Positions 28,224 through 64,000 of a stretch of 64,000 nt of DNA are shown piece after piece. The translations under genes were made by a program, and so were the position numbers. Every line of letters begins with the position of its first letter. Within the stretch, counting starts at the first letter, position 1. Source of the stretch: an uncultured archaeon (GTDB lineage Archaea > Asgardarchaeota > Lokiarchaeia > Sigyniarchaeales > SOKP01); contig CAZGJX010000001.1 in NCBI GenBank assembly GCA_964525635.1, positions 1 to 64,000 on the forward strand. The letters run 5' to 3'. The notes under the pieces are model-generated. The model made no database searches. It was not told the origin of the DNA and saw nothing but the letters and a program-made list of their open reading frames with translations.

Positions 28224-28241
28224 ATTAAATCATCATAATTA

Positions 28242-29192
28242 TTATAATTTAAATAAATCTATAAAAAAATCTAGAATTTCGTCACCATAAAAAGAATATA
28301 ATGTTATTATCCCCATTATTAAAAAAGCGATAATTATTCCTGTATCAAAAAATGCTTTTTCTGTATTACGAGCAATATCAGGTCTTTCTGAGGTTAAGTA
28401 CATATATCTCATAATAATATAGATAAGAACTGGAATTGAAAGAATCATAATTGAATTCTTATCATCTAATAGATTTACAGGTAATAATTGAAATTTATAA
28501 AATAAATAAAGACAATAGGAAATAAAAATAGATGTTGCTGTTATGTTATGAAAGTTATCTAATATTTTTATCGAATATATACTATAGACTTTCTTATGTT
28601 TAATTGCATTTTCTTGATGTCCAAACATCATTAAATCTCCCTTTCTTTTTGCTATAACCAAAAAGAGAGCTACTTCAAAAATTAATAAAAACAACCAGGC
28701 AGATATTCCTTCATCTATTAAAAAACATCCTGCCAAGGATCTCCATAGATATCCTGTAGATAAAATTAAAATATCAACAAAAGCATAATATTTAAAGAGA
28801 AGGTTATATAACTGCCCTGTAACAACAATTGCAATCAATATTAATATGAAATTCAAATTAACTGGTATTAAAAATATCAATGAAAATATGATAAAGAAAC
28901 TTAGAGCTAAAATCAAAAAAACGGCAAATTTAACAGATAATTCACCTGAAGCAAGGGGTTTTTTATTCAATTTCTCTTGATGTTCTTTATCCCTTTCAAT
29001 ATCTATAATGTCATTAATAATATAATTAATTGATGAGGTAAAACATAATAGAATGAAACCTATCATTAGAGGGAAGTAATAATCGATTTTGAAGAGTTTT
29101 TCACTGAAGAAAATACCAACAAATATTAATAAATTCTTATAGTATTGTCTAATTCTTAATAAATCGATTATATTTTTAACTGAATTTGACAT
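28242..29192 (-). CDS. UbiA-family prenyltransferase (polyprenyl-phosphate phosphoribosyltransferase-like)
   Basis: R..QYYKN, YIINDIID...D..H, PLASG, KRKGD. Confidence 0.85.
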   Translation of the reverse strand: MSNSVKNIIDLLRIRQYYKNLLIFVGIFFSEKLFKIDYYFPLMIGFILLCFTSSINYIINDIIDIERDKEHQEKLNKKPLASGELSVKFAVFLILALSFFIIFSLIFLIPVNLNFILILIAIVVTGQLYNLLFKYYAFVDILILSTGYLWRSLAGCFLIDEGISAWLFLLIFEVALFLVIAKRKGDLMMFGHQENAIKHKKVYSIYSIKILDNFHNITATSIFISYCLYLFYKFQLLPVNLLDDKNSIMILSIPVLIYIIMRYMYLTSERPDIARNTEKAFFDTGIIIAFLIMGIITLYSFYGDEILDFFIDLFKL

Positions 29193-29229: not shown

Positions 29230-31761
29230 TTAATACATTATTTTATCTGGTTTTATTTTTTTTAGTATTTTATACCCTATTTTTGACATTCCACTAGTTT
29301 CAGATTTTAATTGAATCATAGCACTATCATAACTAAAACTAATTAAATCAAGTTGCTTTAAAGATAATTCTATTGTTTTGTTAAATATATTTTCAATAAT
29401 AACAATTGTCTCTGATTCCTCATTTTTTGTTTTTTTATTTTTATCAAAATTAATTTGTTTTTTAGAAATCTCCTTTAGATATCCTATTTCAACATTATTC
29501 ACAGGCTTCTTTAAATAAAAATAAGATCTGATTTTATTGTTCAATAGCCAATTCAATAATTCAGTTTCAGATTTTTTATACCTTTCACTTTTTCTAATTG
29601 AATAATAGATATTTTTAGGGCGAACTATTAAGTCTTTTAGACTTAATTTAAAAATCTCTTTTTCACTGTTATTATTGTGATTTTTCATCAATTCTAATGT
29701 ATAATTTGTATCCCCTGTTTTTTTTACATTTATACATTCAGTTATTTGCAATATTCCTTTCGATTTTAAGAATAGATCTTTTCCTTGGAAGGTTTTTATT
29801 AAATCAAGAGAAATAGGTAATTTTGTTTTTTTTATTGGTTTTAAAACTTTTTCTTCATTATTATTTACAAAGACATAGTTTCCATCATTGTTTTCTTTAT
29901 TAAATTCTATCTCTTGTAAGATTAACGGTATATCTTTATTAAAAACATAATGATTTCCAAATTTAACTTCTGTTTTTGGATATAGGAAAGAATTAAGATA
30001 TTCTATTTTATTATTTTTTAGGTTTTCTATTTTATATTGAAAAGTATCAGATATATCATCAATAAATTCGATATCCTTTATTTTCCCTAATATTAATTTA
30101 CTATTAATTATATTTTTAAAGAGATAATCTTTTTCAAATTCATCTTTGTATAAATCTCTTATCTTTAAATCTTTTAAAAGATTGGAAATATCTTCTATAT
30201 CAAATAATTCCTTAAATTTATTATTAGCAATTTCCTTAAATTCTATTACTTGTTTTTCAAATTTTTTTCCATATTTTATCCTTTTTGAATTTTTGGCACA
30301 TAACAAAGGAAGAATTGCTTCCTTGTAAGGATTTATATCATCACCTAAAATTGCAGCAATTCTATGGTAACTAGGGGGATGAGAATTAATAAAATTACCT
30401 AAGAGAGATATTCGGGAAGGTTTTACCATCGAATGACTAATATATTTTGCTGTATCAATGTAATCTAATAATTGGTTATCTTTTGTTATTTTTTCTTCAC
30501 AGAGTAACATTGTATTTAAACCAGTTTCTCGTCCAGATGCATAAAAACTTTCCAAATTATATAATGCTTTTGTTAATTCTATTTTATAACCGGCTTCTTT
30601 GGTCCTTAAATCAGCATATCCTTCAAGAATTCTAACAAAGAAATAAAGAATAATATAAATACCTATATTAATTATAATAAAATAAATTAATGGGATCTGA
30701 GGATTACCAAATGTGTAATCATAAAAAGTAGCTGGGATTTTTAAAAAATACCTTACTATTAAATCACCAATGGTAATAAAAGTGAGTATAAGTATATGAT
30801 TTCCCTTAGTATGAGCAAGTTCATGTGCAATTATACCTTTTAACTCATCTTCTTTTATATTTTCAATATCATTAGCAATTATAGCAATTCTTTTATTAAA
30901 AAAAGGTCCATATGCTTGAGCATTCAAAATAGGGTATTTTCCAAATCCAACTCTTACTTTTCCTTTAATTCCTATATCTTTTTTTACTTCTTCGACGATA
31001 TTTAATAACTTCTCATCTTTTACTTCCTTGATACCTAAGAGTTTATCAATAAAAGCTCCTGAAATAAAGTATATTATAATATTTATAACAATTAAGATAA
31101 CGTAAATAATACTTAAGAGATCAAACTTAATATTAAATTCTAGAAGGATAGGATTAATAAATTGGCTAAGGAAGACTACAAATAACCATCCAATGATATA
31201 TAAGAAGATAACAAGATATTGAGGGCTCATAAATCGCCAAACAATTAAATATTTTCTACCAAATAATAAAAATCCTAATCCAAGAATGATCCAAAAAGAA
31301 AAAGCAAAGGTGGTATCTAGGACAATGGATGAAGTTAAAATCTTTGATTTTTCTAAATATGAAGATATAACCCCTGCTATAAAAATAAGATTATAGGTAA
31401 TTAAAGAAATAGTCAAAAGTTTGTTGATTATAGGATACTCTTTTAATTCAATGACACCAATCCATAAATAGATCGAAAATGCTCCCATAATGGAAGTCAA
31501 TATATCTTTAGTAAAAACATATATGATAAAAAAGAAAAAAGCCATAGCAATAAGATCGCTAAGCTCACTCCTTTTTCCATTTTTTGCCCATACATAAAAT
31601 TCTTCTATAGTAATTGCAAATAAACATATCATTACCAAAAAGGCCCAATCTGAAAAAAGTTCTGCTAGATTTATTTTCAAATAAAAATATATAATAAGAA
31701 ATGTGGATAAAGATCCAATAAGATAAATCAATAATAAACTGTATCTAGAAAATTTATTCAT
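29230..31761 (-). CDS. M48 (HtpX/Ste24-like) membrane zinc protease with long C-terminal extension
   Basis: About 7 N-terminal TMs, AHELAH, EGYAD, SHPP...R. Confidence 0.82.
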   Translation of the reverse strand: MNKFSRYSLLLIYLIGSLSTFLIIYFYLKINLAELFSDWAFLVMICLFAITIEEFYVWAKNGKRSELSDLIAMAFFFFIIYVFTKDILTSIMGAFSIYLWIGVIELKEYPIINKLLTISLITYNLIFIAGVISSYLEKSKILTSSIVLDTTFAFSFWIILGLGFLLFGRKYLIVWRFMSPQYLVIFLYIIGWLFVVFLSQFINPILLEFNIKFDLLSIIYVILIVINIIIYFISGAFIDKLLGIKEVKDEKLLNIVEEVKKDIGIKGKVRVGFGKYPILNAQAYGPFFNKRIAIIANDIENIKEDELKGIIAHELAHTKGNHILILTFITIGDLIVRYFLKIPATFYDYTFGNPQIPLIYFIIINIGIYIILYFFVRILEGYADLRTKEAGYKIELTKALYNLESFYASGRETGLNTMLLCEEKITKDNQLLDYIDTAKYISHSMVKPSRISLLGNFINSHPPSYHRIAAILGDDINPYKEAILPLLCAKNSKRIKYGKKFEKQVIEFKEIANNKFKELFDIEDISNLLKDLKIRDLYKDEFEKDYLFKNIINSKLILGKIKDIEFIDDISDTFQYKIENLKNNKIEYLNSFLYPKTEVKFGNHYVFNKDIPLILQEIEFNKENNDGNYVFVNNNEEKVLKPIKKTKLPISLDLIKTFQGKDLFLKSKGILQITECINVKKTGDTNYTLELMKNHNNNSEKEIFKLSLKDLIVRPKNIYYSIRKSERYKKSETELLNWLLNNKIRSYFYLKKPVNNVEIGYLKEISKKQINFDKNKKTKNEESETIVIIENIFNKTIELSLKQLDLISFSYDSAMIQLKSETSGMSKIGYKILKKIKPDKIMY

Positions 31762-37075: not shown

Positions 37076-37125
37076 TAATATTATCTAGTTTTTTTTTATG
37101 AAAAATTAATAATTAAAAGAGAAAA

Positions 37126-37198
37126 TAGCCCGGCACGGACTCGAACCGTGGTCACAGGGTTCAAAGCCCCGTATGCTTGGCCACTACACCACCGGGCT
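37126..37198 (-). tRNA. tRNA-Gln(UUG), intron-less, CCA not encoded
   Basis: AGCCCGG/CCGGGCT acceptor stem, anticodon loop CT-TTG-AA, GGTTCGAGTCC T-arm. Confidence 0.97.
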
Positions 37199-37253
37199 AA
37201 TATAGATATATTAGAATAATCTAAAGTTTTATTTACTATTAGTATTAAATAGT

Positions 37254-45460: not shown

Positions 45461-45846
45461 TTACATTTGTTCTATAATTGCTCTCAACATATCTTCTCCA
45501 CATGCTCCCACCATTTTTCCATTTTGTATATGATTTTGACCATTTACTTCTATATTTTTTTCTATTAATTCCCCATCTTTGAAAAACAACAGGGTTGGGA
45601 TTGCGTGTATATTAAACATATTACCCAATGGTCTATTTTGATCTAAATCAACTTGTATTATATTTATTAATCCTTCATCTCTTAGCTTATGTAAAATTGG
45701 TGTGATGAACTTTCATGATGATTTATCTAATTATTAAATCATTTGCATGGTCCGCACCAAACAGTATAAATATCTATGATAAGCTTTCCTTTTTTCATTT
45801 CCTCTGTAACTGGAATGTTCACATCTTTTAATTTATCGATATTCAT
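45461..45846 (-). CDS. trxA: Thioredoxin, 117 aa after removal of a 32-nt intron (exons 45846-45744 and 45711-45461)
   Basis: Spliced product MNIDKLKD...IIDIYTVWCGPCK|FITPILHKL...QVDLDQN...FNIHAIPTLLFFKDG...MVGA; absent from the ORF track. Confidence 0.9.
45712..45743 (-). other. BHB-type intron in thioredoxin mRNA (32 nt)
   Basis: mRNA GGAC-CAUG-CA^A-AUGAUUUA-(9-nt loop)-UAAAUCAU-CAUG-AA^A-GUUC: canonical 3-4-3 BHB; the cuts restore UGC AAG UUC. Confidence 0.88.
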
Positions 45847-55945: not shown

Positions 55946-57005
55946 AGTTAATACCTTGTTAAAGAAATTTCAAAATAATGCATGTTCATGGGAAGATTAT
56001 TTAAAATTTTTAGAATTAGATAATAATGAAGAACTTGAAGCTTTTTTTAAATTTGCTCAGGAATTAAAAAAAGTTCATTTTGGAGATATCCTTAAAATAT
56101 ATATTCCAAATAAAAGATTTCCTCCAATTAGTATAACAGGAAATAAATGTGAATTACATTGTGAGCATTGCAATGAAAAATATCTTAATGGCATGCATCA
56201 TATCATCAATAAAGTGGAATTGGAAAATTATTTAATACAACATTATAAAAATGGGGGTATTGGCGCATTAATTTCCGGAGGTTGTCTTTTAGATGGATCA
56301 GTTCCCTTATTGGGTTTTCTAGATGCGCTTAAAAATGTGAAAAATAAAACGGATTTAATATTAAACATACATACTGGGTTATTAAATAATGAAACAGCTA
56401 AACAATTAGCAAATATAAACGCTGATATTATTTCCTTTGATATCAATATGGATACAGAAATAATTAAAGAAATATATCATTTAAACAAGGATATAAATGA
56501 TTATAAAGAAGCTATTAGATTATTAAAAAAAAATAATCTTAATATAGTTCCCCATATATGTGTAGGATTATATTATGGTGAATTACATAAAGAATTGAAT
56601 TCAATTAAATTTATAAAAGAATCTAAAATAAATCCATCTTTAATAGTGCTTATTGTTTTAATACCTCCAAAAGAATCTAAAAAACATTTTAAAACACCCA
56701 ATCCATATGATATTGCGAAGGTTATTACTATTATTAGAACTGTGTTTCCCAAATCAGAAATTTCTTTAGGTTGTATGCGTCCAAGAGATAAAATCAGGAA
56801 GAGAATAGAAAAATTTGCAATTAAAGCAGGTATAACAAGGATAGAATTACCTTTAAGACAAACATATGAATGGGTTATGAAAAAATTTTCAAGAATAAAT
56901 ATAGAGTTTTACTCTGCTTGTTGTGCTATTCCTCAAGAATATGAAAAAAAGGCAAAAATGTCTAAATCTGAAATAAAAAAATATCAAAGGAATGGAAATG
57001 AATAA
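55938..57005 (+). CDS. lipS1: Radical SAM lipoyl synthase subunit LipS1-like
   Basis: SITG..CELHCEHC, LISGG, LGCMRP, C-terminal CC. Confidence 0.78.
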   Translation: MNKVNTLLKKFQNNACSWEDYLKFLELDNNEELEAFFKFAQELKKVHFGDILKIYIPNKRFPPISITGNKCELHCEHCNEKYLNGMHHIINKVELENYLIQHYKNGGIGALISGGCLLDGSVPLLGFLDALKNVKNKTDLILNIHTGLLNNETAKQLANINADIISFDINMDTEIIKEIYHLNKDINDYKEAIRLLKKNNLNIVPHICVGLYYGELHKELNSIKFIKESKINPSLIVLIVLIPPKESKKHFKTPNPYDIAKVITIIRTVFPKSEISLGCMRPRDKIRKRIEKFAIKAGITRIELPLRQTYEWVMKKFSRINIEFYSACCAIPQEYEKKAKMSKSEIKKYQRNGNE

Positions 57006-58398
57006 TAAAGTTGAGATAATTAAAATTCACGGAATTCCCCATATTAAAAAGGGAGATAATATTTCTCAAATTATTTTAGATAATTTAGAAAATAATAATA
57101 TAGAAATAGAGAATAAGGATATTTTAATAATTGCCCAGAAAATTATTTCAAAAAGTCTGGGTTTAGTAAAAGATTTAAGAAAAATAAAACCAAGAAAAGA
57201 AGCATTAAGAATATTTAATAAAATTAATTCAATAATAAGAGAACCCAATCTTCCAGTAAAAGATCCAGAATTAATAGAAATTATATTAGATGAATCCAAT
57301 GAACTAATAAAAATAAACCATGTATTAATAACTGAAACAAAACATGGATTTGTCTGTGCAAATGCAGGAATTGATAAATCTAATATTAAAGGTCAGAATA
57401 ATGTTACGTTGTTACCTGATGATCCTGATAAAGAAGCAAAAAAAATAAAAGAAATTATAAAAGAAAGAATAGGTAAAAATATTGCTGTTATTATTTCTGA
57501 TTCTTTTGGAAGACCATTTAGAAATGGATCTGTTGGAGTTGCTTTAGGTGTTGCAGGTATTGAACCTTTATTAGATAAAAGAGGATGTAAAGATCTTTAT
57601 GGAAAAATTTTAAGGAGTACAATAATAGCTCAAATAGATAATTTATCTTCAGCCGCACAATTAATTATGGGTGAATCAAATGAAGGAATTCCTATTGCTC
57701 TTATTAGAGGATATAATTTTAAATTAAGTGATAATTCTTCAATAAAATCCATTTTAAGAGAAAAAAAAAAAGATCTTTTTAGACAAGAGAATGTTGAAAG
57801 AGTAATAGAAGATTTATTGAAGAATAGAAGGAGTTACAAACTAAAATTTGCAAATAAAGATGTGAATGAAGATTTAATTATAAATTGCATTAATATAGCT
57901 AGATATGCCCCTAGTGCTCATAATAAACAATTATGGAAATATATAATATTAGAAAAGCAAAATCGAAAAGAATTAATAGATAATATGAATCAAAAATTAA
58001 AAGATGATTTAGAAAAAGATGATAAATCAGAAAAATTCATAAAAAATAAAATTAATAAAACGAGAAGTCATTTCCTAGAAGCTCCCTTTCTAATATTATT
58101 ATCCTTAGATTGTTCTGAAATAGATGAATATTCAGATCTTAAAAGAAATAATAATGAATTTCTATTGGGGATTCAAGGTATAAGTGCTTCTGCAATTTAT
58201 TTCCTTTTAGCTCTAGAATCAAAAGGATTAAATTCTTGTTGGTATTCTGCACCATTATTTGCTGAAGAAGTAGTTCAAAAAACTTTAAATTTACCCAAAA
58301 ATTTTAAACCAATCGCATTTTTTACAATAGGTTATCCAAAAAAAAAAATTTTGGCTCAACCACGTAAAAAAATAGATGAAATAATTTATAAAATATGA
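56992..58398 (+). CDS. cofE: F420-0:L-glutamate ligase CofE fused to a nitroreductase domain (FbiB-like)
   Basis: ANAGIDKSN, LLP.DPD, SDSFGRPFR; C-terminal RRSY, APSAHN.Q.W, IGYP. Confidence 0.9.
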   Translation: MEMNNKVEIIKIHGIPHIKKGDNISQIILDNLENNNIEIENKDILIIAQKIISKSLGLVKDLRKIKPRKEALRIFNKINSIIREPNLPVKDPELIEIILDESNELIKINHVLITETKHGFVCANAGIDKSNIKGQNNVTLLPDDPDKEAKKIKEIIKERIGKNIAVIISDSFGRPFRNGSVGVALGVAGIEPLLDKRGCKDLYGKILRSTIIAQIDNLSSAAQLIMGESNEGIPIALIRGYNFKLSDNSSIKSILREKKKDLFRQENVERVIEDLLKNRRSYKLKFANKDVNEDLIINCINIARYAPSAHNKQLWKYIILEKQNRKELIDNMNQKLKDDLEKDDKSEKFIKNKINKTRSHFLEAPFLILLSLDCSEIDEYSDLKRNNNEFLLGIQGISASAIYFLLALESKGLNSCWYSAPLFAEEVVQKTLNLPKNFKPIAFFTIGYPKKKILAQPRKKIDEIIYKI

Positions 58399-58408
58399 AT
58401 GATATAAA

Positions 58409-59335
58409 TTGGAAGATTATTACTTAATTTTAGCAGGTGGTGTGGGTGCAGCAAAATTCATTGAAGGATTAGCTAATATAATAGATCAAGCAAAAATAAA
58501 GATTGTAGTAAATACGGGGGATGATATTGAATTATTTGGTTTACAGATATCTCCTGATTTAGATATAATTACATATACATTGGCAAATTTAATTGATAAA
58601 AAAAAAGGCTGGGGATTTAAAGAAGATACATTTAATTGTTTGAAGAATTTAAGCAAATTTTATCAAGATGATTGGTTTAATCTTGGAGATAAAGATTTAG
58701 CAACTCATATTTATCGAACAAATTTATTCAATAAAGGATATTCTAAAGCAAGAATTACAAAAAAAATTAGTCGAAAATTAGGGATTAAAGCAGATTTAAT
58801 TCCTATGTGCAATGAACCTGTTCAAACATATATAGAAACTACAGAAGGATTATTTCATTTTGAGGAATTTTATATAAAATATCAGTGTAAACCTAAAATT
58901 TTAGACATTAAACTTGAAGGAATTGAAAAAGCGAAACCAATCGATGGTATTTTTAAAATAATAAAGTTTGCTAAAAAGATAATAATAAGTCCTTCGAATC
59001 CTATTGTATCTATAGGTCCAATTCTAGCTGTACCTGGAATGAAAGAAGCTTTAATTAAGGAAAAAGATAAAATATATGGAATTAGCCCAATTATAAAAGG
59101 AGCACCAATTAAAGGTCCTGCTGATAAATTATTACAATTCTGTGATTTAGAAGTCTCATGTGTAGGAGTTGCAAATTTTTATAAAAATATAGTAAGACAT
59201 TTTATTATTGATAAAAGAGATGAAAAATTAAAATCAAAAATAGAAGAATTAGATATAAATACGTATTGTTATGACACCTTAATGATAAATTTAAGAAAAA
59301 AGAAAGATTTAGCTTCTTTTATAATCGAGTTGTAA
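58409..59335 (+). CDS. cofD: 2-phospho-L-lactate transferase
   Basis: GGVGAAKF, NTGDD, SPDLD, LGDKDLATH, PSNP.VSIGPI, KGPADK. Confidence 0.94.
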   Translation: MEDYYLILAGGVGAAKFIEGLANIIDQAKIKIVVNTGDDIELFGLQISPDLDIITYTLANLIDKKKGWGFKEDTFNCLKNLSKFYQDDWFNLGDKDLATHIYRTNLFNKGYSKARITKKISRKLGIKADLIPMCNEPVQTYIETTEGLFHFEEFYIKYQCKPKILDIKLEGIEKAKPIDGIFKIIKFAKKIIISPSNPIVSIGPILAVPGMKEALIKEKDKIYGISPIIKGAPIKGPADKLLQFCDLEVSCVGVANFYKNIVRHFIIDKRDEKLKSKIEELDINTYCYDTLMINLRKKKDLASFIIEL

Positions 59336-59341
59336 TAAAAA

Positions 59342-60847
59342 TTAGGTTGTTTCAGTTGCTATTTCTTCAGATCCAACTTTAGGCTCTTCTTCTAAACTTG
59401 AGTCAATATCCTCTTTTTTAACGTAATCTCCCACAGATATAAGTATATCTTTTATCTTTCCTTCTTGCTTTAATCTCATAATCAGACTACGGTTTTTAAT
59501 GAATGAAATAACTTTTGCAACAACAGGGAAAAGAAGCATAATTGGTAGAAGAAGAACAATAATTGCCTCTGGAGAATACATAGCAACACTTTTACTAATA
59601 GCATCGGGAAGTTGAAGAACATTAATAAGGAACCACCTTGGATGAATAATAATATAGCTGATAAATATTAAGACGATAATTCTTGTAGATGCATTAATGA
59701 GTGTAGAAACTGCTAGGTTTTTTGATCTCGGTGCAGAACTTTTTGCGGTTAAAGTATCCTCTGCCTCTGGATCTTCTCTAAATAAACGTTCAGCATATCT
59801 CCCTAACCTCCGTGTCTTTGAGGCTGCAGTAATTAATTTTTTCTCCTCAGATTCTAATTTTTTCTTTTCAATCATTTCTTTTATATAGGAGAATTTTCTT
59901 TCTTTTTTCATTAAGAATACTTCTACAGATTCTTTTTCTATTCCTAATTCTTCTTTTTTTTTTTTAGCTTCTTCTTTTATTTTATCTATATTTGTTGTAA
60001 TATGCATTGATTCTCTGCGTATTAATTTTAATTGAGCTTCTAATCGTTCACTTCTCCTGAGAGATGGTTGAGTGACTGTATCTGTATAATTAATTTGAAA
60101 GGCCATTTCAAGATACAAATAGCATACTATTGCAAATAATATAAGTGGATTACTAATGAAGGTAAAAAAATTATCTATTGGTATATCGTTGAAAGAATCA
60201 CTTAATGGATTTGCTAACTCATTTAAATTAATAATTTCATTTTCTGTAAGCCAATCATTTATAGGTTTAAGTGCACCAAATAAATCGAGCATATCTCTAA
60301 ATCCATAAATAATTAATGGAAATATAATCATTGAAACTAAAAGTCCAATAGCTCTTAAATTATTTTTTGGATTACTTTGGAATATAGCTCTTATAACATA
60401 AAAAATAGCTAAGATAAACAATAATTGAAAGATGACTAAATAAATATCATTTGAAAGTATAGCTAATTGTGTAAATATTTTATCTCCAAGATCATCAAAT
60501 TCAGGAGTTACTCCATCTGGGAAACTAAACCAACTACCAAGAAGATTTTTAAAGAATAGATGAACAAAATTAAATATATCTGATCCACCAACAGCGGAAA
60601 ACATTCCACCAATTACAAATGCAAAAGCTATAGCAATGCAATATAATAGTACAAAGATTAATAAACTAATCAGATCCTTTAATGCAAATATAAAATCCAC
60701 AACAACCCATTGTTTATTACCATCTTTAGCAACTGTGAGTATTTCTTGAAAATTAAACAATGAGAAAAAGATAGTAAGTATCCAAAAAAATAATAATGCA
60801 TTTAATATTCTTAAAGTCATTAAATAATATCTTCGTTCCATATTCAA
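59342..60847 (-). CDS. Multi-pass membrane protein of the MoxR operon
   Basis: Multiple TMs with a cytoplasmic coiled-coil loop. Confidence 0.7.
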   Translation of the reverse strand: MNMERRYYLMTLRILNALLFFWILTIFFSLFNFQEILTVAKDGNKQWVVVDFIFALKDLISLLIFVLLYCIAIAFAFVIGGMFSAVGGSDIFNFVHLFFKNLLGSWFSFPDGVTPEFDDLGDKIFTQLAILSNDIYLVIFQLLFILAIFYVIRAIFQSNPKNNLRAIGLLVSMIIFPLIIYGFRDMLDLFGALKPINDWLTENEIINLNELANPLSDSFNDIPIDNFFTFISNPLILFAIVCYLYLEMAFQINYTDTVTQPSLRRSERLEAQLKLIRRESMHITTNIDKIKEEAKKKKEELGIEKESVEVFLMKKERKFSYIKEMIEKKKLESEEKKLITAASKTRRLGRYAERLFREDPEAEDTLTAKSSAPRSKNLAVSTLINASTRIIVLIFISYIIIHPRWFLINVLQLPDAISKSVAMYSPEAIIVLLLPIMLLFPVVAKVISFIKNRSLIMRLKQEGKIKDILISVGDYVKKEDIDSSLEEEPKVGSEEIATETT

Positions 60848-60856
60848 TATACCTCT

Positions 60857-62185
60857 TTAATATGCACTTCCTTTCTTTTTTGCTTCTAAATAGTTATTTA
60901 TTACTTGATTCATCATATCATCAGGACCAACTGTAATAAGATTAATTCCAAGCCTTCGAGCTTCTTGTTTTATTCCTAAAATATGCTCCATCATTTCTTC
61001 AGATATTGCTTCTGCTAAGGCTTTATCTGTTGACGATAAATCAACTTCATGAATTTCAAACCAAGGTGAAAAAGGATTTATTATAATAACTGTATGACCA
61101 AAAGGAATTAATTTTCTAACTGCGTCTCTAATTTCTTTGATACTTGTCTCTAAATCAGAAATGATAAAAATTAAGCTCCGCTTCTGATACCTCTTAATAA
61201 AATTATCCATAGCATCAAAAATTTTGCATTTACCTTCAGGTTTTACTCTTGCAACAAAATCTAAAACTTGATAAAAATACTCTTCACCACTTCCTGGTTT
61301 TAAATATTTAAAATTTTTTTTATTGGAGAATGTATATATCCCCACATTATCACGTCTCGTTAAGGCAATTTTTGTTAATAACATACATGCTCTAATAGCA
61401 TATTCAAATTTTGTATTATCTATTGCACCCCCCGCCATTGAATTAGAGGAATCAACCAAAATCATCATATTGATATCTCTTTCAGTTTCAAATTCTCTTA
61501 CAATTAATTTTTGGGTTCTAACACTTGCTTTCCAATCGATTAATCTAAATTGATCTCCAAAAACATATTTTCTCATTCCAAAAAATTCTGAACCTAATCC
61601 TTTTTGTTTTGATCGTTGTACACCATAATTTAAATTAAGAGATCTTTTTGATCCTAAGATTTCTATCCTTTTTATATCTTCATACGGAGGATAAATTAAA
61701 ACATCAGTAACACTATTTGGGATAATTCTTTCAGCAGAATTAAATCCAAGACGATCTTTTACTATTACAGATAAAGGTCCAAGTGGATATTCACCCCTTA
61801 CCTTTGGTTCAAGTACATAAGAAAATTTAATTAAATCTTTTGGACCTATTCGAGTACTTATAAAATTCTCACCTAATATTAATCTAAAAAGTGCAGGATT
61901 ATAGTAATCTCTAATTTCTATAAAGTCAAAACTATTTCTCCCAGCATTTTCAATGATTACTTTGATATGTACAAAATCATCTTTGAAAATCTTTTGTTTT
62001 TCTAATTCCCTATGAACCCTTAATTCTTCTACATCCATCTGATAATAGAATAATGGGAGACTGATAACGGCACTAAATAGTAGAATTATTCCAAAATAGA
62101 CTAGAAAATAATTTACATTAGCAAACCCAGCTGCTAAAAAAAAAACACTAAATAAAATTAACGTTCTTCCTTTTCCACCTAGCAT
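60857..62185 (-). CDS. DUF58 / vWA-domain MoxR partner
   Basis: EFFGMRKY..GD..R.IDWKAS, VREFE, DSSNS MIDAS, IISD. Confidence 0.9.
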   Translation of the reverse strand: MLGGKGRTLILFSVFFLAAGFANVNYFLVYFGIILLFSAVISLPLFYYQMDVEELRVHRELEKQKIFKDDFVHIKVIIENAGRNSFDFIEIRDYYNPALFRLILGENFISTRIGPKDLIKFSYVLEPKVRGEYPLGPLSVIVKDRLGFNSAERIIPNSVTDVLIYPPYEDIKRIEILGSKRSLNLNYGVQRSKQKGLGSEFFGMRKYVFGDQFRLIDWKASVRTQKLIVREFETERDINMMILVDSSNSMAGGAIDNTKFEYAIRACMLLTKIALTRRDNVGIYTFSNKKNFKYLKPGSGEEYFYQVLDFVARVKPEGKCKIFDAMDNFIKRYQKRSLIFIISDLETSIKEIRDAVRKLIPFGHTVIIINPFSPWFEIHEVDLSSTDKALAEAISEEMMEHILGIKQEARRLGINLITVGPDDMMNQVINNYLEAKKKGSAY

Positions 62186-62261: not shown

Positions 62262-63273
62262 TTAAATTGGAACTGGAATTTCCTCCATAATATTTTTTAT
62301 AACAGCTCTGACGTCAAGACCTTCTAATTCTGCTTCTGGTTTTAATAACAGACGATGATTCAATGCAGGGACAGTTAATGCTCTTACATCATCAGGAGTT
62401 ACATAAGTTCTTCCTAAGATCGCAGCTCTTGCCTTAGAGCATTTCATTAGTACTAAACTTGCTCTAGGACCACATCCTAATCCAATTTGAGGATGGTTTC
62501 TTGTTTTAAGAATTATATCTCTAATATATTTTAGAATTCTCTCATCGATATATACTTGATTTACCAAATTCTGAGCAGCAAGTATTTCTGGTCCACTAGT
62601 GATACGTTGGACAGTTGGTGAGTCTCCAGACAATTGTCGTCTCATGATTTCAACTTCTTCATCATGTTCTGGATAATCCAGCCATAATTTAAACAAAAAT
62701 CTATCAACCTGAGCTTCAGGTAATGGATAAGTCCCTTCCATCTCTACAGGATTCTCTGTTGCTATTACCATAAATGGTTTTTCGAGTTCCAAGGTTTGAC
62801 CTTCTATTGTAATTTGCCGTTCAGCCATGGCTTCAAGGAGTGCTGCTTGTGTTTTAGGAGCACTTCTATTAATTTCATCCGCTAATACGATGTTTGCAAA
62901 TAAAGGTCCTTTTTGAAGCACGAATGTTCCTTCTTCTTGTGAGAATATTTTTGTACCGGTAATATCTGCCGGAAGAAGATCTGGTGTGAATTGTACTCGT
63001 TTAAAACTTACACCTAAAGTATTTGCAAATGTTTTAGCCATTACTGTTTTACCTAGTCCCGGAACGCCTTTTAACCAAATAATTCGAATTGAATTAAATT
63101 TCTAGTAAGACGTGTCCGTTGACAAGTAAGGATACAAATAATTGCTGAAGAATTTCTCCACATCCCACAATAACTCTACTTACCTCTGAGAGTACCTCCT
63201 GAGCAATTTCTCTTATGGGGGTAATATCTAACTCGCTATGAGAAGCTGTTTTTATTTTACTTGGTGTTGACAT
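62262..63273 (-). CDS. moxR: MoxR-family AAA+ ATPase, 326 aa after removal of a 31-nt intron (exons 63273-63102 and 63070-62262)
   Basis: Spliced product MSTPSK...VIVG...[10 protein letters not shown]|[12 protein letters not shown]...[12 protein letters not shown]...LADEINR...[14 protein letters not shown]; the track ORF lacks Walker A. Confidence 0.9.
63071..63101 (-). other. Relaxed BHB-type intron in moxR mRNA (31 nt; boundary could slide 1-2 nt)
   Basis: mRNA ACGUCU-UACU-AG^A-AA..UAAUUC-loop-GAAUUA.UU-GGUU-AA^A-AGGCGU; removal gives CUA GAA GGC. Confidence 0.78.
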
Positions 63274-63355
63274 ATTTTTTTATACCTTCCTTTTTTTATT
63301 TTTAATTTTTATATTATTTTTTTAATAAATTATTCATTTATAACTAGATTTTAAA

Positions 63356-64000
63356 TTACATATTGTTTACAACCCATTCCATTTCAAAGAATAGGTCTTC
63401 AAATTCTATTTCATTTTTAATTTTTAATTTTCCTACTTTTAAATTTAACATATTATCAATAAAACGTGATATTCTCTTTACTTTATTCCTTGTGATATTT
63501 GGATCTTTTCGTTGAACCAAATCAATTACGTTTTTTGTAGTTATTTTCATATCTCCTAATTGAGCATGTAATTTTCTATCCAATCTTCGATTAAGTAAAG
63601 TGAGTGCTTTATTAAATTGTCTCTTTTCATGATACCACTCTATTTTTTTTGCAAAAAATGATGAGGTTCTAAATCTCATTTTTTCCTCTTTTTTTTCTTC
63701 TTTTTCTATTTTCTTTTTCTCAGCTTTCTTTCCTTTTTTAGGTAGATACCTTCTTAAAGAATAAATAGCAAGTAAAGGATAAATCCAGGCCGTAATTGGA
63801 TTTGTACTTAGATGTATAACATATTGTAATACAATTCCATAAATTCCAGCGGAACTTAAATCTCTTGATTGTTCAGGGCGAATATGTGCTTCATCAAAAG
63901 CTATAACCCAATCATCTGGACCTTCATTATATGTAAGCCACTCTATTACATTCATTGCTAATTGTTTATTATCATAACCACCTCGATCAATTAGCTCATT
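63356..64000 (-). CDS. DUF4350-like MoxR-operon protein, 5' part lies outside the window
   Basis: DN..F/I..NVIEWL...IAFDEAH motif, TM, basic tail; frame remains open to the window edge. Confidence 0.65.
   Translation of the reverse strand, partial: NELIDRGGYDNKQLAMNVIEWLTYNEGPDDWVIAFDEAHIRPEQSRDLSSAGIYGIVLQYVIHLSTNPITAWIYPLLAIYSLRRYLPKKGKKAEKKKIEKEEKKEEKMRFRTSSFFAKKIEWYHEKRQFNKALTLLNRRLDRKLHAQLGDMKITTKNVIDLVQRKDPNITRNKVKRISRFIDNMLNLKVGKLKIKNEIEFEDLFFEMEWVVNNM

Follow-up and report, generated by a model that had tools for sequence, protein, structure and literature searches.

The gene considered here lies near the end of a 64,000-nucleotide stretch of DNA from an uncultured Lokiarchaeia-type Asgard archaeon (contig CAZGJX010000001.1 of GenBank assembly GCA_964525635.1, positions 1 to 64,000), which we call the window, and it encodes an AAA+ ATPase of the MoxR family. 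The window belongs to an archaeal assembly of 4.45 Mb in 245 contigs, designated G000 below, and the DNA runs that contain stretches of it are salt-marsh metagenomes. The MoxR gene is on the minus strand. From an ATG at 63273 it is open for 58 codons up to ...NGHVLLE, where it runs into AUU UAA; the junction region as a whole reads ...GGA CAC GUC UUA CUA G^AAAUUUAAUUCAAUUCGAAUUAUUUGGUUAA^AA GGC GUU CCG GGA CUA GGU AAA ACA (here and below a caret marks a boundary or a cut). An earlier sequence-only reading of this DNA had proposed that a 31-nt insertion with an in-frame UAA splits GHVLLE^GVPGLGKT, and both the sequence and its open reading frames (ORFs) agree with that description to the base. 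It is very probable, in our judgement, that these 31 nt are a real bulge-helix-bulge (BHB) intron in the MoxR pre-mRNA, and that they are excised by splicing of the tRNA type. The features of the gene and of its RNA are the following.

63102 to 63273, minus strand: MoxR exon 1, from the ATG at 63273 to ...GHVLL and the first G of a Glu codon, as given by the ORF and its translation.
63094 to 63273, minus strand: the ORF of unspliced exon 1, which closes at the intron UAA.
62262 to 63070, minus strand: MoxR exon 2, which begins with the AA of the Glu codon and GVPGLGKT... and has its stop at 62262 to 62264; Pfam AAA_3 and AAA_lid_2.
63071 to 63101, minus strand: the 31-nt BHB intron, with an in-frame UAA, skipped by an RNA contig and present as a single copy in the genome.
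63108 to 63117, minus strand: outer helix h, exon-1 strand (GGACACGUCU), partner of 63061 to 63069.
63061 to 63069, minus strand: outer helix h, exon-2 strand (AGGCGUUCC), partner of 63108 to 63117.
63104 to 63107, minus strand: central 4-bp helix H, exon-1 strand UACU, facing GGUU at 63073 to 63076 as U-U, A-U, C-G and U-G.
63073 to 63076, minus strand: central helix H', intron strand GGUU, facing UACU at 63104 to 63107.
63101 to 63103, minus strand: bulge 1, AG^A, with the 5' splice site between 63102 and 63101; this junction restores the frame.
63070 to 63072, minus strand: bulge 2, AA^A, with the 3' splice site between 63071 and 63070.
63077 to 63100, minus strand: intron-internal helix h' (AA/UU plus UAAUUC/GAAUUA) with the 5-nt loop AAUUC.

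Deletion of 63071 to 63101 produces a 981-nt frame that encodes an unbroken MoxR protein of 326 aa with an intact Walker A motif. On exon 2, Pfam recognizes AAA_3 (E=1.7e-61) from profile position 6, which falls on GVPGLGKT, and then AAA_lid_2 (3.1e-23); the protein thus has both of the domains of a MoxR AAA+ ATPase, and its Walker A sequence GxxGxGKT is complete solely after excision. The first ATG in the frame of exon 2 is at 63041, and the P-loop codons lie upstream of it.

The structural details in the sequence-only reading are likewise all present: the exon pairing GGA-c-ACGUCU/AGGCGU-UCC, the stem UAAUUC/GAAUUA, the helix UACU/GGUU with its one U-U, and the bulges AGA and AAA. The two bulges, each of 3 nt, lie on opposite strands with the 4-bp helix between them, and helices flank them on both sides, h with 9 bp and one bulged C and h' with 2 + 6 bp in G000. 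The flanking A's permit three equivalent placements of the insert (63069-63099, 63070-63100 and 63071-63101). For the introns of the archaeal cbf5 gene the cut falls between the second and third bulge nucleotides (PMC2738675). A BHB of equal quality (at least 3/4 pairs in H, 6/6 in h and at least 2/3 in h') occurs at 3.2e-4 of the site-length combinations in the G000 genome, and a blastn-short search of that genome found no second copy of the intron.

Among 135 genomes of the family that were searched, 126 yielded the orthologous gene. An insert breaks it at the Walker A site in each of the four species of the G000 genus (G000 to G003, genus g1) and in G012, the sole species of genus g10; the three other g1 assemblies with the insert are metagenome-assembled genomes (MAGs) deposited as ‘Promethearchaeota archaeon’ or ‘uncultured archaeon’. 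All of the remaining orthologues are unbroken at Walker A, except for G007 (genus g5), considered below, and three matches at contig ends: that of G057 is short and truncated by the contig end, not by an intron, and those of G080 and G042 start at the first bases of their contigs. The insert measures 31 nt in G000, 30 nt in G001, G002 and G003 and 32 nt in G012, so that all residues modulo 3 are represented. Nevertheless, a cut after the second nucleotide of the bulges AG^A and AA^A gives ..UAG^AAGG.. (Leu-Glu-Gly) and restores LLEGVPG in five of five genomes. The frame-restoring register of the sequence-only reading is therefore the one conserved across five genomes and three intron lengths, and with a single structural rule serving all three residues, explanations at the level of translation or of gene decay are hard to sustain. 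Considering that the insert is present in five separately assembled genomes, in two JGI metagenome contigs and in a 776-nt DNA contig (100% identical, insert included) from a run not flagged as a possible source of the assembly, it is not an assembly artefact. Pattern scans of genome and metagenome contigs for further variants of the insert returned only the known sequence types.

The five interrupted genes share a common architecture: the outer helix ACGUCU/AGGCGU and beyond, UACU or UAUU facing GGUU or GGUA, the bulges AGA and AAA, and a 5-nt hairpin loop. The central helix is paired at 3/4 positions in G000, G002 and G012 and at 4/4 (UACU/GGUA) in G001 and G003. In G012, h' has 3 + 6 bp and adjoins both bulge 1 and H', and its sole deviation from the canonical hBHBh' form is the U-U in H that it has in common with G000. 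In the alignment of the five sequences, 94% of the cells are paired in the BHB structure, and shifting the 3' partners by 1-3 columns lowers this figure to 28-54%. Compensatory changes are found at two hairpin pairs of h' in G012 (UA to AU and UA to CG).

The outer duplex is also unusually stable. Its energy is -8.9 kcal/mol in G000 and -8.3 to -10.1 kcal/mol over the intron-bearing alleles, which represent two independent lineages only, whereas the mean for 25 intronless orthologues is -4.5 kcal/mol and just one of these reaches -8.3. CAC GUC is the codon pair of every intron-bearing allele (L004-L007 and L024), and among the intronless ones, L008-L033, a single allele rivals their exon-exon helices in strength. 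The codons for GHV and GVP are, as a side observation, partly self-complementary in any MoxR gene (GGNCAYGU versus GGNGUNCC), and perhaps this self-complementarity may predispose the site to hosting a BHB. As to the history of the site, a MoxR protein tree (30 genomes, 268 columns) does not place g1 and g10 as sisters, with two nodes of 89% bootstrap between them. This non-sister position calls for either losses or the lateral transfer of an intron-bearing allele, a choice that a single gene of 268 columns cannot decide.

The joined form of the RNA comes from X19, a sediment metatranscriptome of another study. A 151-nt contig from X19 aligns with 62989-63068 and then with 63100-63167. It skips 31 nt cleanly; the position of the skip is ambiguous by 2 nt, and the shorter of the two aligned sides measures 68 nt. 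It contains the junction that the sequence-only reading had named as its test, GUCUUACUAG^AAGGCGUUCC, and 31 nt are skipped, not 29. Its identity to the window is ~93%, with 10 mismatches in 148 positions, and where the differences are listed by position (63024, 63036, 63130 and 63133) four of four are synonymous third-position changes. A second X19 contig, covering 63139-63289, is 98% identical to G000. Over the same two stretches the intron-bearing congeners have 80-87% and 75-79% identity to G000, and three sampled intronless genera 45-82%. As it is closer to G000 than either of these, the source of the X19 RNA belongs on the G000 branch, in a genus where the intron is found in each of the four known members. 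We infer that the DNA of this organism carries it too, and the parsimonious reading of the contig is that it represents a spliced transcript. With respect to the DNA runs (X4, X5 and X21), the insert is retained in contigs of X4, as it is in genome and metagenome contigs; no joined form occurs in the contigs of X4, X5 or X21, of which the listed X5 and X21 pieces do not span the intron.

The G000 genome has the genes expected for such a reaction: two tRNA-intron endonuclease (EndA) paralogues (PF01974) and one gene for the RNA ligase RtcB (PF01139, 554 bits). The EndA alpha paralogue (202 aa) has all three of the catalytic residues, Tyr, His and Lys. The Protein Data Bank entry that matches it best is 3P1Z_B (E=4e-37), the catalytic alpha subunit from the heterotetramer of Aeropyrum pernix. 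The two align end to end, including ...PLGISKPRLEYF... opposite ...PLDVEKPRGADF..., and the PLGISKPRLEYF stretch of the archaeal protein is what we take to be the L1 (Crenarchaea-specific) loop. The second paralogue (204 aa) has Phe and Ala at the positions of the Tyr and the His, which marks it as a structural beta subunit. Asgard archaea have an (alpha-beta)2 EndA with an L1 loop that confers a broad substrate range, and this form has been described as the broad-specificity type in Asgard and TACK archaea (PMC5829648). The sequence-only reading had implied an EndA of relaxed specificity, and G000 encodes an EndA of this (alpha-beta)2 type. ARAGORN predicts 51 tRNA genes in the G000 genome and places introns of 8-61 nt in the anticodon loops of 19 (an extra call of 491 nt is probably spurious), and the single tRNA gene of the window, a tRNA-Gln at 37125-37199, is intronless.

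The splicing of the MoxR pre-mRNA would then proceed as follows. The end of exon 1 would pair with the start of exon 2 (GGA-c-ACGUCU with AGGCGU-UCC), and UACU, the last four paired bases of exon 1, with GGUU near the 3' end of the intron, while the rest of the intron would form a hairpin. The two resulting 3-nt bulges, AGA and AAA, would lie on opposite strands 4 bp apart, and the heterotetrameric (alpha-beta)2 EndA would presumably cut each of them after its second nucleotide. RtcB would then join the exons to give ...CUA GAA GGC..., and hence an intact Walker A motif and a MoxR ATPase of 326 aa. RNA that remains unspliced would yield only a 59-aa peptide.

Several observations weigh against this interpretation. 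The central helix of G000 contains a U-U mismatch, and the RNAfold optimum favors a 6-bp pairing, ACUAGA/UUUGGU, that corresponds to an excision of 29 nt. The competing 29-nt register, to which the sequence-only reading had itself drawn attention, is thus not only present but is even the register of the minimum-free-energy fold (z = -4.0 versus shuffles). The statistics of the covariation are thin, with four distinct intron sequences from two lineages, and 16 of 500 shuffles reach the observed score. The spliced contig is from another sample and is 7% diverged, so that RNA and DNA are not of one population and an intron-less strain is possible. Neither unspliced nor circular intron RNA was seen, at a coverage so low that nothing is to be read from it. 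Finally, the proposal that EndA and RtcB are the enzymes that remove the intron by cleavage and ligation is drawn from the presence of their genes. Some of these points can be qualified. The mismatch, a caveat of the sequence-only reading as well, is eased by two congeners (G001 and G003) with a U-A pair at that position. The fold was computed on 63055-63120 of the minus strand, and the sole joined RNA uses the 31-nt register instead; thermodynamic folding alone would mispredict the splice sites of G000 and is an unreliable guide to the cuts here. The 31-nt register is favored by the observed junction, by the reading frame and by the perfect UACU/GGUA helix of G001 and G003. As for an intron-less strain, a precise loss at the BHB sites would itself indicate an intron.

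The only rival explanation that the X19 contig does not by itself exclude is a DNA polymorphism. The insert could be a small mobile element that is present or precisely excised among cells or strains, in which case the ‘spliced’ contig, whether RNA or contaminating DNA, would represent an insert-free allele. RNA libraries can contain DNA, the X19 contig is not identical to the window, and the insert has a patchy distribution on the MoxR tree, being found in g1 and in the non-sister g10. Against this, none of the three congeners, all of which bear the insert, comes nearly as close to G000 as the X19 population does; the DNA contigs of X4, X5 and X21 have no joined form; the insert is a single copy in the genome; and in five of five genomes, with three lengths among them, it begins and ends at the cut sites of the BHB. 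On balance such a polymorphism seems to us unlikely.

Translational bypass, in which the mRNA would retain the 31 nt and the ribosome would hop over them as in T4 gene 60 or the mitochondrial byp elements, has to be judged less likely still. A stop shortly after the break and a hairpin in the gap are features of known bypass sites, and the MoxR insert has both. Nevertheless, its take-off and landing codons do not match (GAA before the gap and AAA before GGC), the contig from the RNA library is devoid of the 31 nt that a bypass would leave in place, and the conserved BHB includes a pairing between exons for which bypassing has no need.

The insert might also simply be disabling, leaving either a MoxR pseudogene or a 59-aa peptide plus a P-loop-less protein of 259 aa that starts at the ATG at 63041. 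The DNA frame is indeed broken by the UAA and a +1 shift, and the ATG-started 259-aa ORF does exist downstream. The pattern of substitutions, however, is that of an intact gene. The MoxR sequences of G000 and its congeners are 81-82% identical as DNA and 93-95% identical as protein, and the Nei-Gojobori dN/dS versus the congeners is 0.02-0.03 for the last 42 codons of exon 1 and 0.03-0.04 for exon 2. In all species pairs except the near-identical G001/G003 dS ranges from 0.7 to >2 (saturation). With dN/dS this low on both exons and dS saturated, MoxR is not decaying, and the claim of the sequence-only reading to this effect, based there on the operon, is sustained by purifying selection. The nine codons of GVPGLGKTV are particularly informative. 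In every pair with G000 they have synonymous differences only, at 5-6 of ~8 synonymous sites, and the sole non-synonymous change in these codons is one on the G002 branch. Since they lie upstream of the first ATG, have no start codon (ATG, GTG or TTG) between the intron stop and GVPG, and change only synonymously, they must be translated as a continuation of exon 1. In addition, the insert is kept at one site in five species, with compensatory changes; between G000 and G002 the intron differs by one substitution and one indel, far below the expectation from the saturated synonymous sites. The operon partners of MoxR are also intact:

60857 to 62185, minus strand: DUF58/VWA gene of the MoxR operon, downstream and intact (Pfam DUF58 4.5e-31, VWA_2 2e-9).
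59342 to 60847, minus strand: ORF of 501 aa, downstream and intact, with no Pfam match.
63356 to 64000, minus strand: 3' portion of an upstream gene of 589 aa that extends to position 65125 of the contig (C1), with a weak DUF4350 match of 25 bits.

The sequence-only reading had described the rest of the operon as intact, with DUF4350, DUF58 and membrane-protein genes. The DUF58/VWA gene and the 501-aa ORF bear this out, but the DUF4350 match of the upstream ORF is below threshold (25 versus a cut-off of 30.4 bits). All in all, a decaying gene has, like bypass, only a very slight chance of being the explanation. Last, that EndA uses the register with helix ACUA/UGGU and bulges GAA/UAA, removing 29 nt to give a frameshifted product that is non-functional or regulatory, has a next to negligible probability: although the minimum-free-energy fold of G000 takes that pairing, lengthened to 6 bp, the single joined molecule observed skips 31 nt, a 29-nt cut does not restore the G000 frame, no equivalent is conserved in G001 and G003 with their perfect H, and selection on exon 2 requires an in-frame product.

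The Walker A intron is not the only insert of its kind. The rule of cutting after the second bulge nucleotide restores the frame at four more mini-inserts, each with a 4/4 central helix; three are in MoxR orthologues and one is in a thioredoxin gene of the window:

L024:1589-1618, plus strand: second insert in MoxR of G012, 30 nt, between FTP and DLLPAD; in-frame, with three stops; excision restores TPDLLP.
L034:1141-1169, minus strand: insert in MoxR of G007, 29 nt, between MAE and KQV; H GCAG/CUGU, bulges AA^U and AU^A.
L034:614-644, minus strand: insert in MoxR of G007, 31 nt, between ELE and GLD; H AAUU/GAUU, bulges AG^A and AA^A.
Window 45712-45743, minus strand: insert in the thioredoxin gene, 32 nt, after WCGPCK; H CAUG/CAUG (4/4), bulges CA^A and AA^A; excision gives ...CGPCKFITPILHKL...

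In the second insert of G012, H is CACC/GGUG (4/4), the bulges are AG^U and AG^A, and the intron folds into a hairpin of 9 bp (UUUAAAAUU/AAUUUUAAA); this MoxR thus has two mini-introns in one gene copy. Over the family, introns occupy four different positions in the MoxR orthologues. All other g5 genomes with a match have an unbroken gene in the region of the G007 inserts, which suggests that these are recent gains. The ELE^GLD insert of G007 and the Walker A intron of G000 are both 31 nt long, are identical at 21 of 31 positions in an ungapped hand alignment, have the 3' end ..UUAA^AAGG in common and both lie in a ..UAG^AAGG.. (Leu-Glu^Gly) context. This likeness may reflect either transposition to a look-alike target or convergence under the constraint of the BHB.

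A BHB scan of the whole G000 genome (at least 3/4 in H, at least 5/6 in h, at least 2/3 in h', length 20-50, with excision fusing two ORFs of at least 50 codons) recovered 63071-63101 exactly, but its 1994 collapsed hits, compared with 2017-2057 in controls of shifted register, amount to no enrichment at any stringency. In the absence of homology evidence such a scan is powerless, and it is silent on the number of introns in the genome. Two high-scoring candidates on the minus strand of the window were rejected: at 28225-28254 the joined protein is unrecognizable and the site looks like an ordinary boundary between genes, with MVNI... opening the downstream part, and at 31535-31565 the joined protein is again unrecognizable. 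A degenerate form of the intron pattern (3 mismatches, five genomes) gave two extra hits that we attribute to chance, one being in an open ORF and the other having no intron-like context. Elsewhere in the window, 56992-59335 on the plus strand has an ORF of 468 aa and an adjoining one of 308 aa that by eye look like F420 biosynthesis genes, the former perhaps a CofE-like ligase fused to a nitroreductase-like domain and the latter CofD.

In the literature that we searched, frame-interrupting archaeal introns of the tRNA-splicing type are documented in one gene only, the cbf5 (aCBF5/dyskerin homologue) of Crenarchaeota, whose pre-mRNA has a BHB intron (Watanabe 2002; Yoshinari 2006; Yokobori 2009, PMC2738675). 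Like that of MoxR, the cbf5 intron is short, lies inside a coding frame, has a relaxed BHB at its borders and predicted cuts between bulge residues 2 and 3; its hosts, like G000, have a hetero-oligomeric, broad-specificity EndA, and its patchy distribution among relatives indicates both gain and loss. It is not the same intron, however. The MoxR intron is in the gene of an AAA+ ATPase, inside Walker A, and in Promethearchaeota (Lokiarchaeia-type Asgard) rather than in Desulfurococcales or Sulfolobales, and the MoxR family has four intron sites, two of them in one gene copy. On the other hand, RT-PCR and in-vitro cleavage data are known for cbf5, whereas the MoxR intron has one metatranscriptome contig. 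A BHB intron has also been described in the 5' untranslated region of the HVO_1309 mRNA of Haloferax volcanii (PMC7714728). There, as with MoxR, an mRNA joins tRNA and rRNA as a substrate of the archaeal splicing endonuclease, but that intron is in an untranslated leader and interrupts no reading frame. The EndA of Haloferax volcanii is a homodimeric alpha'2 enzyme.

The BHB introns of archaeal tRNA and rRNA, including those of the intron-rich Asgard tRNA genes, have the same motif and presumably the same enzymes as the MoxR intron; the difference is that the MoxR substrate is an mRNA, so that those parts of the motif that lie in exons have to serve as coding sequence as well. The splicing of XBP1/HAC1 mRNA by IRE1 and RtcB is likewise independent of the spliceosome and removes a short, frame-changing intron (26 nt in XBP1) by means of a protein endonuclease and then a tRNA ligase. 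The resemblance to MoxR is that a short frame-changing intron leaves an mRNA without a spliceosome; the XBP1/HAC1 reaction, which is eukaryotic, differs in its endonuclease (IRE1), in its recognition motif (twin stem-loops) and in being part of a regulated stress response. A preprint on Asgard tRNA introns makes no mention of mRNA, and protein-coding genes figure in it only as neighbors that match tRNA loci (bioRxiv 10.64898/2026.10.13.758758). Our literature search turned up no BHB intron described from a protein-coding gene of Asgard archaea, an absence that is not proof. The MoxR intron is therefore of a known mechanism class, but in a new gene and a new phylum, and with a transcript junction.

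As such it joins the very few introns of archaeal protein-coding genes that are backed by RNA. Annotation pipelines will call genes of this sort broken or split, with the consequence that the gene content of Asgard MAGs and their ‘pseudogene’ counts are biased. The expression of at least some Asgard proteins would depend on EndA and RtcB, which links mRNA maturation to tRNA splicing, and this in the lineage nearest to the eukaryotes, where the same pair of enzymes (TSEN/RtcB) and the analogous IRE1/RtcB splicing of mRNA exist. Several intron positions in one gene family also offer a tractable and testable system for intron gain and loss in a prokaryote. A broader view, which we regard as tentative and rather doubtful, is that Lokiarchaeia-type Asgard archaea harbor a dynamic population of BHB mini-introns of ~30 nt that are gained and lost in protein-coding genes and spread via the tRNA-splicing machinery. 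Were this true, they could spread, for example, by reverse splicing or ligation, with reverse transcription and then recombination as the later steps, and the prokaryotes most closely related to the eukaryotes would routinely splice mRNA in expressing their genes.

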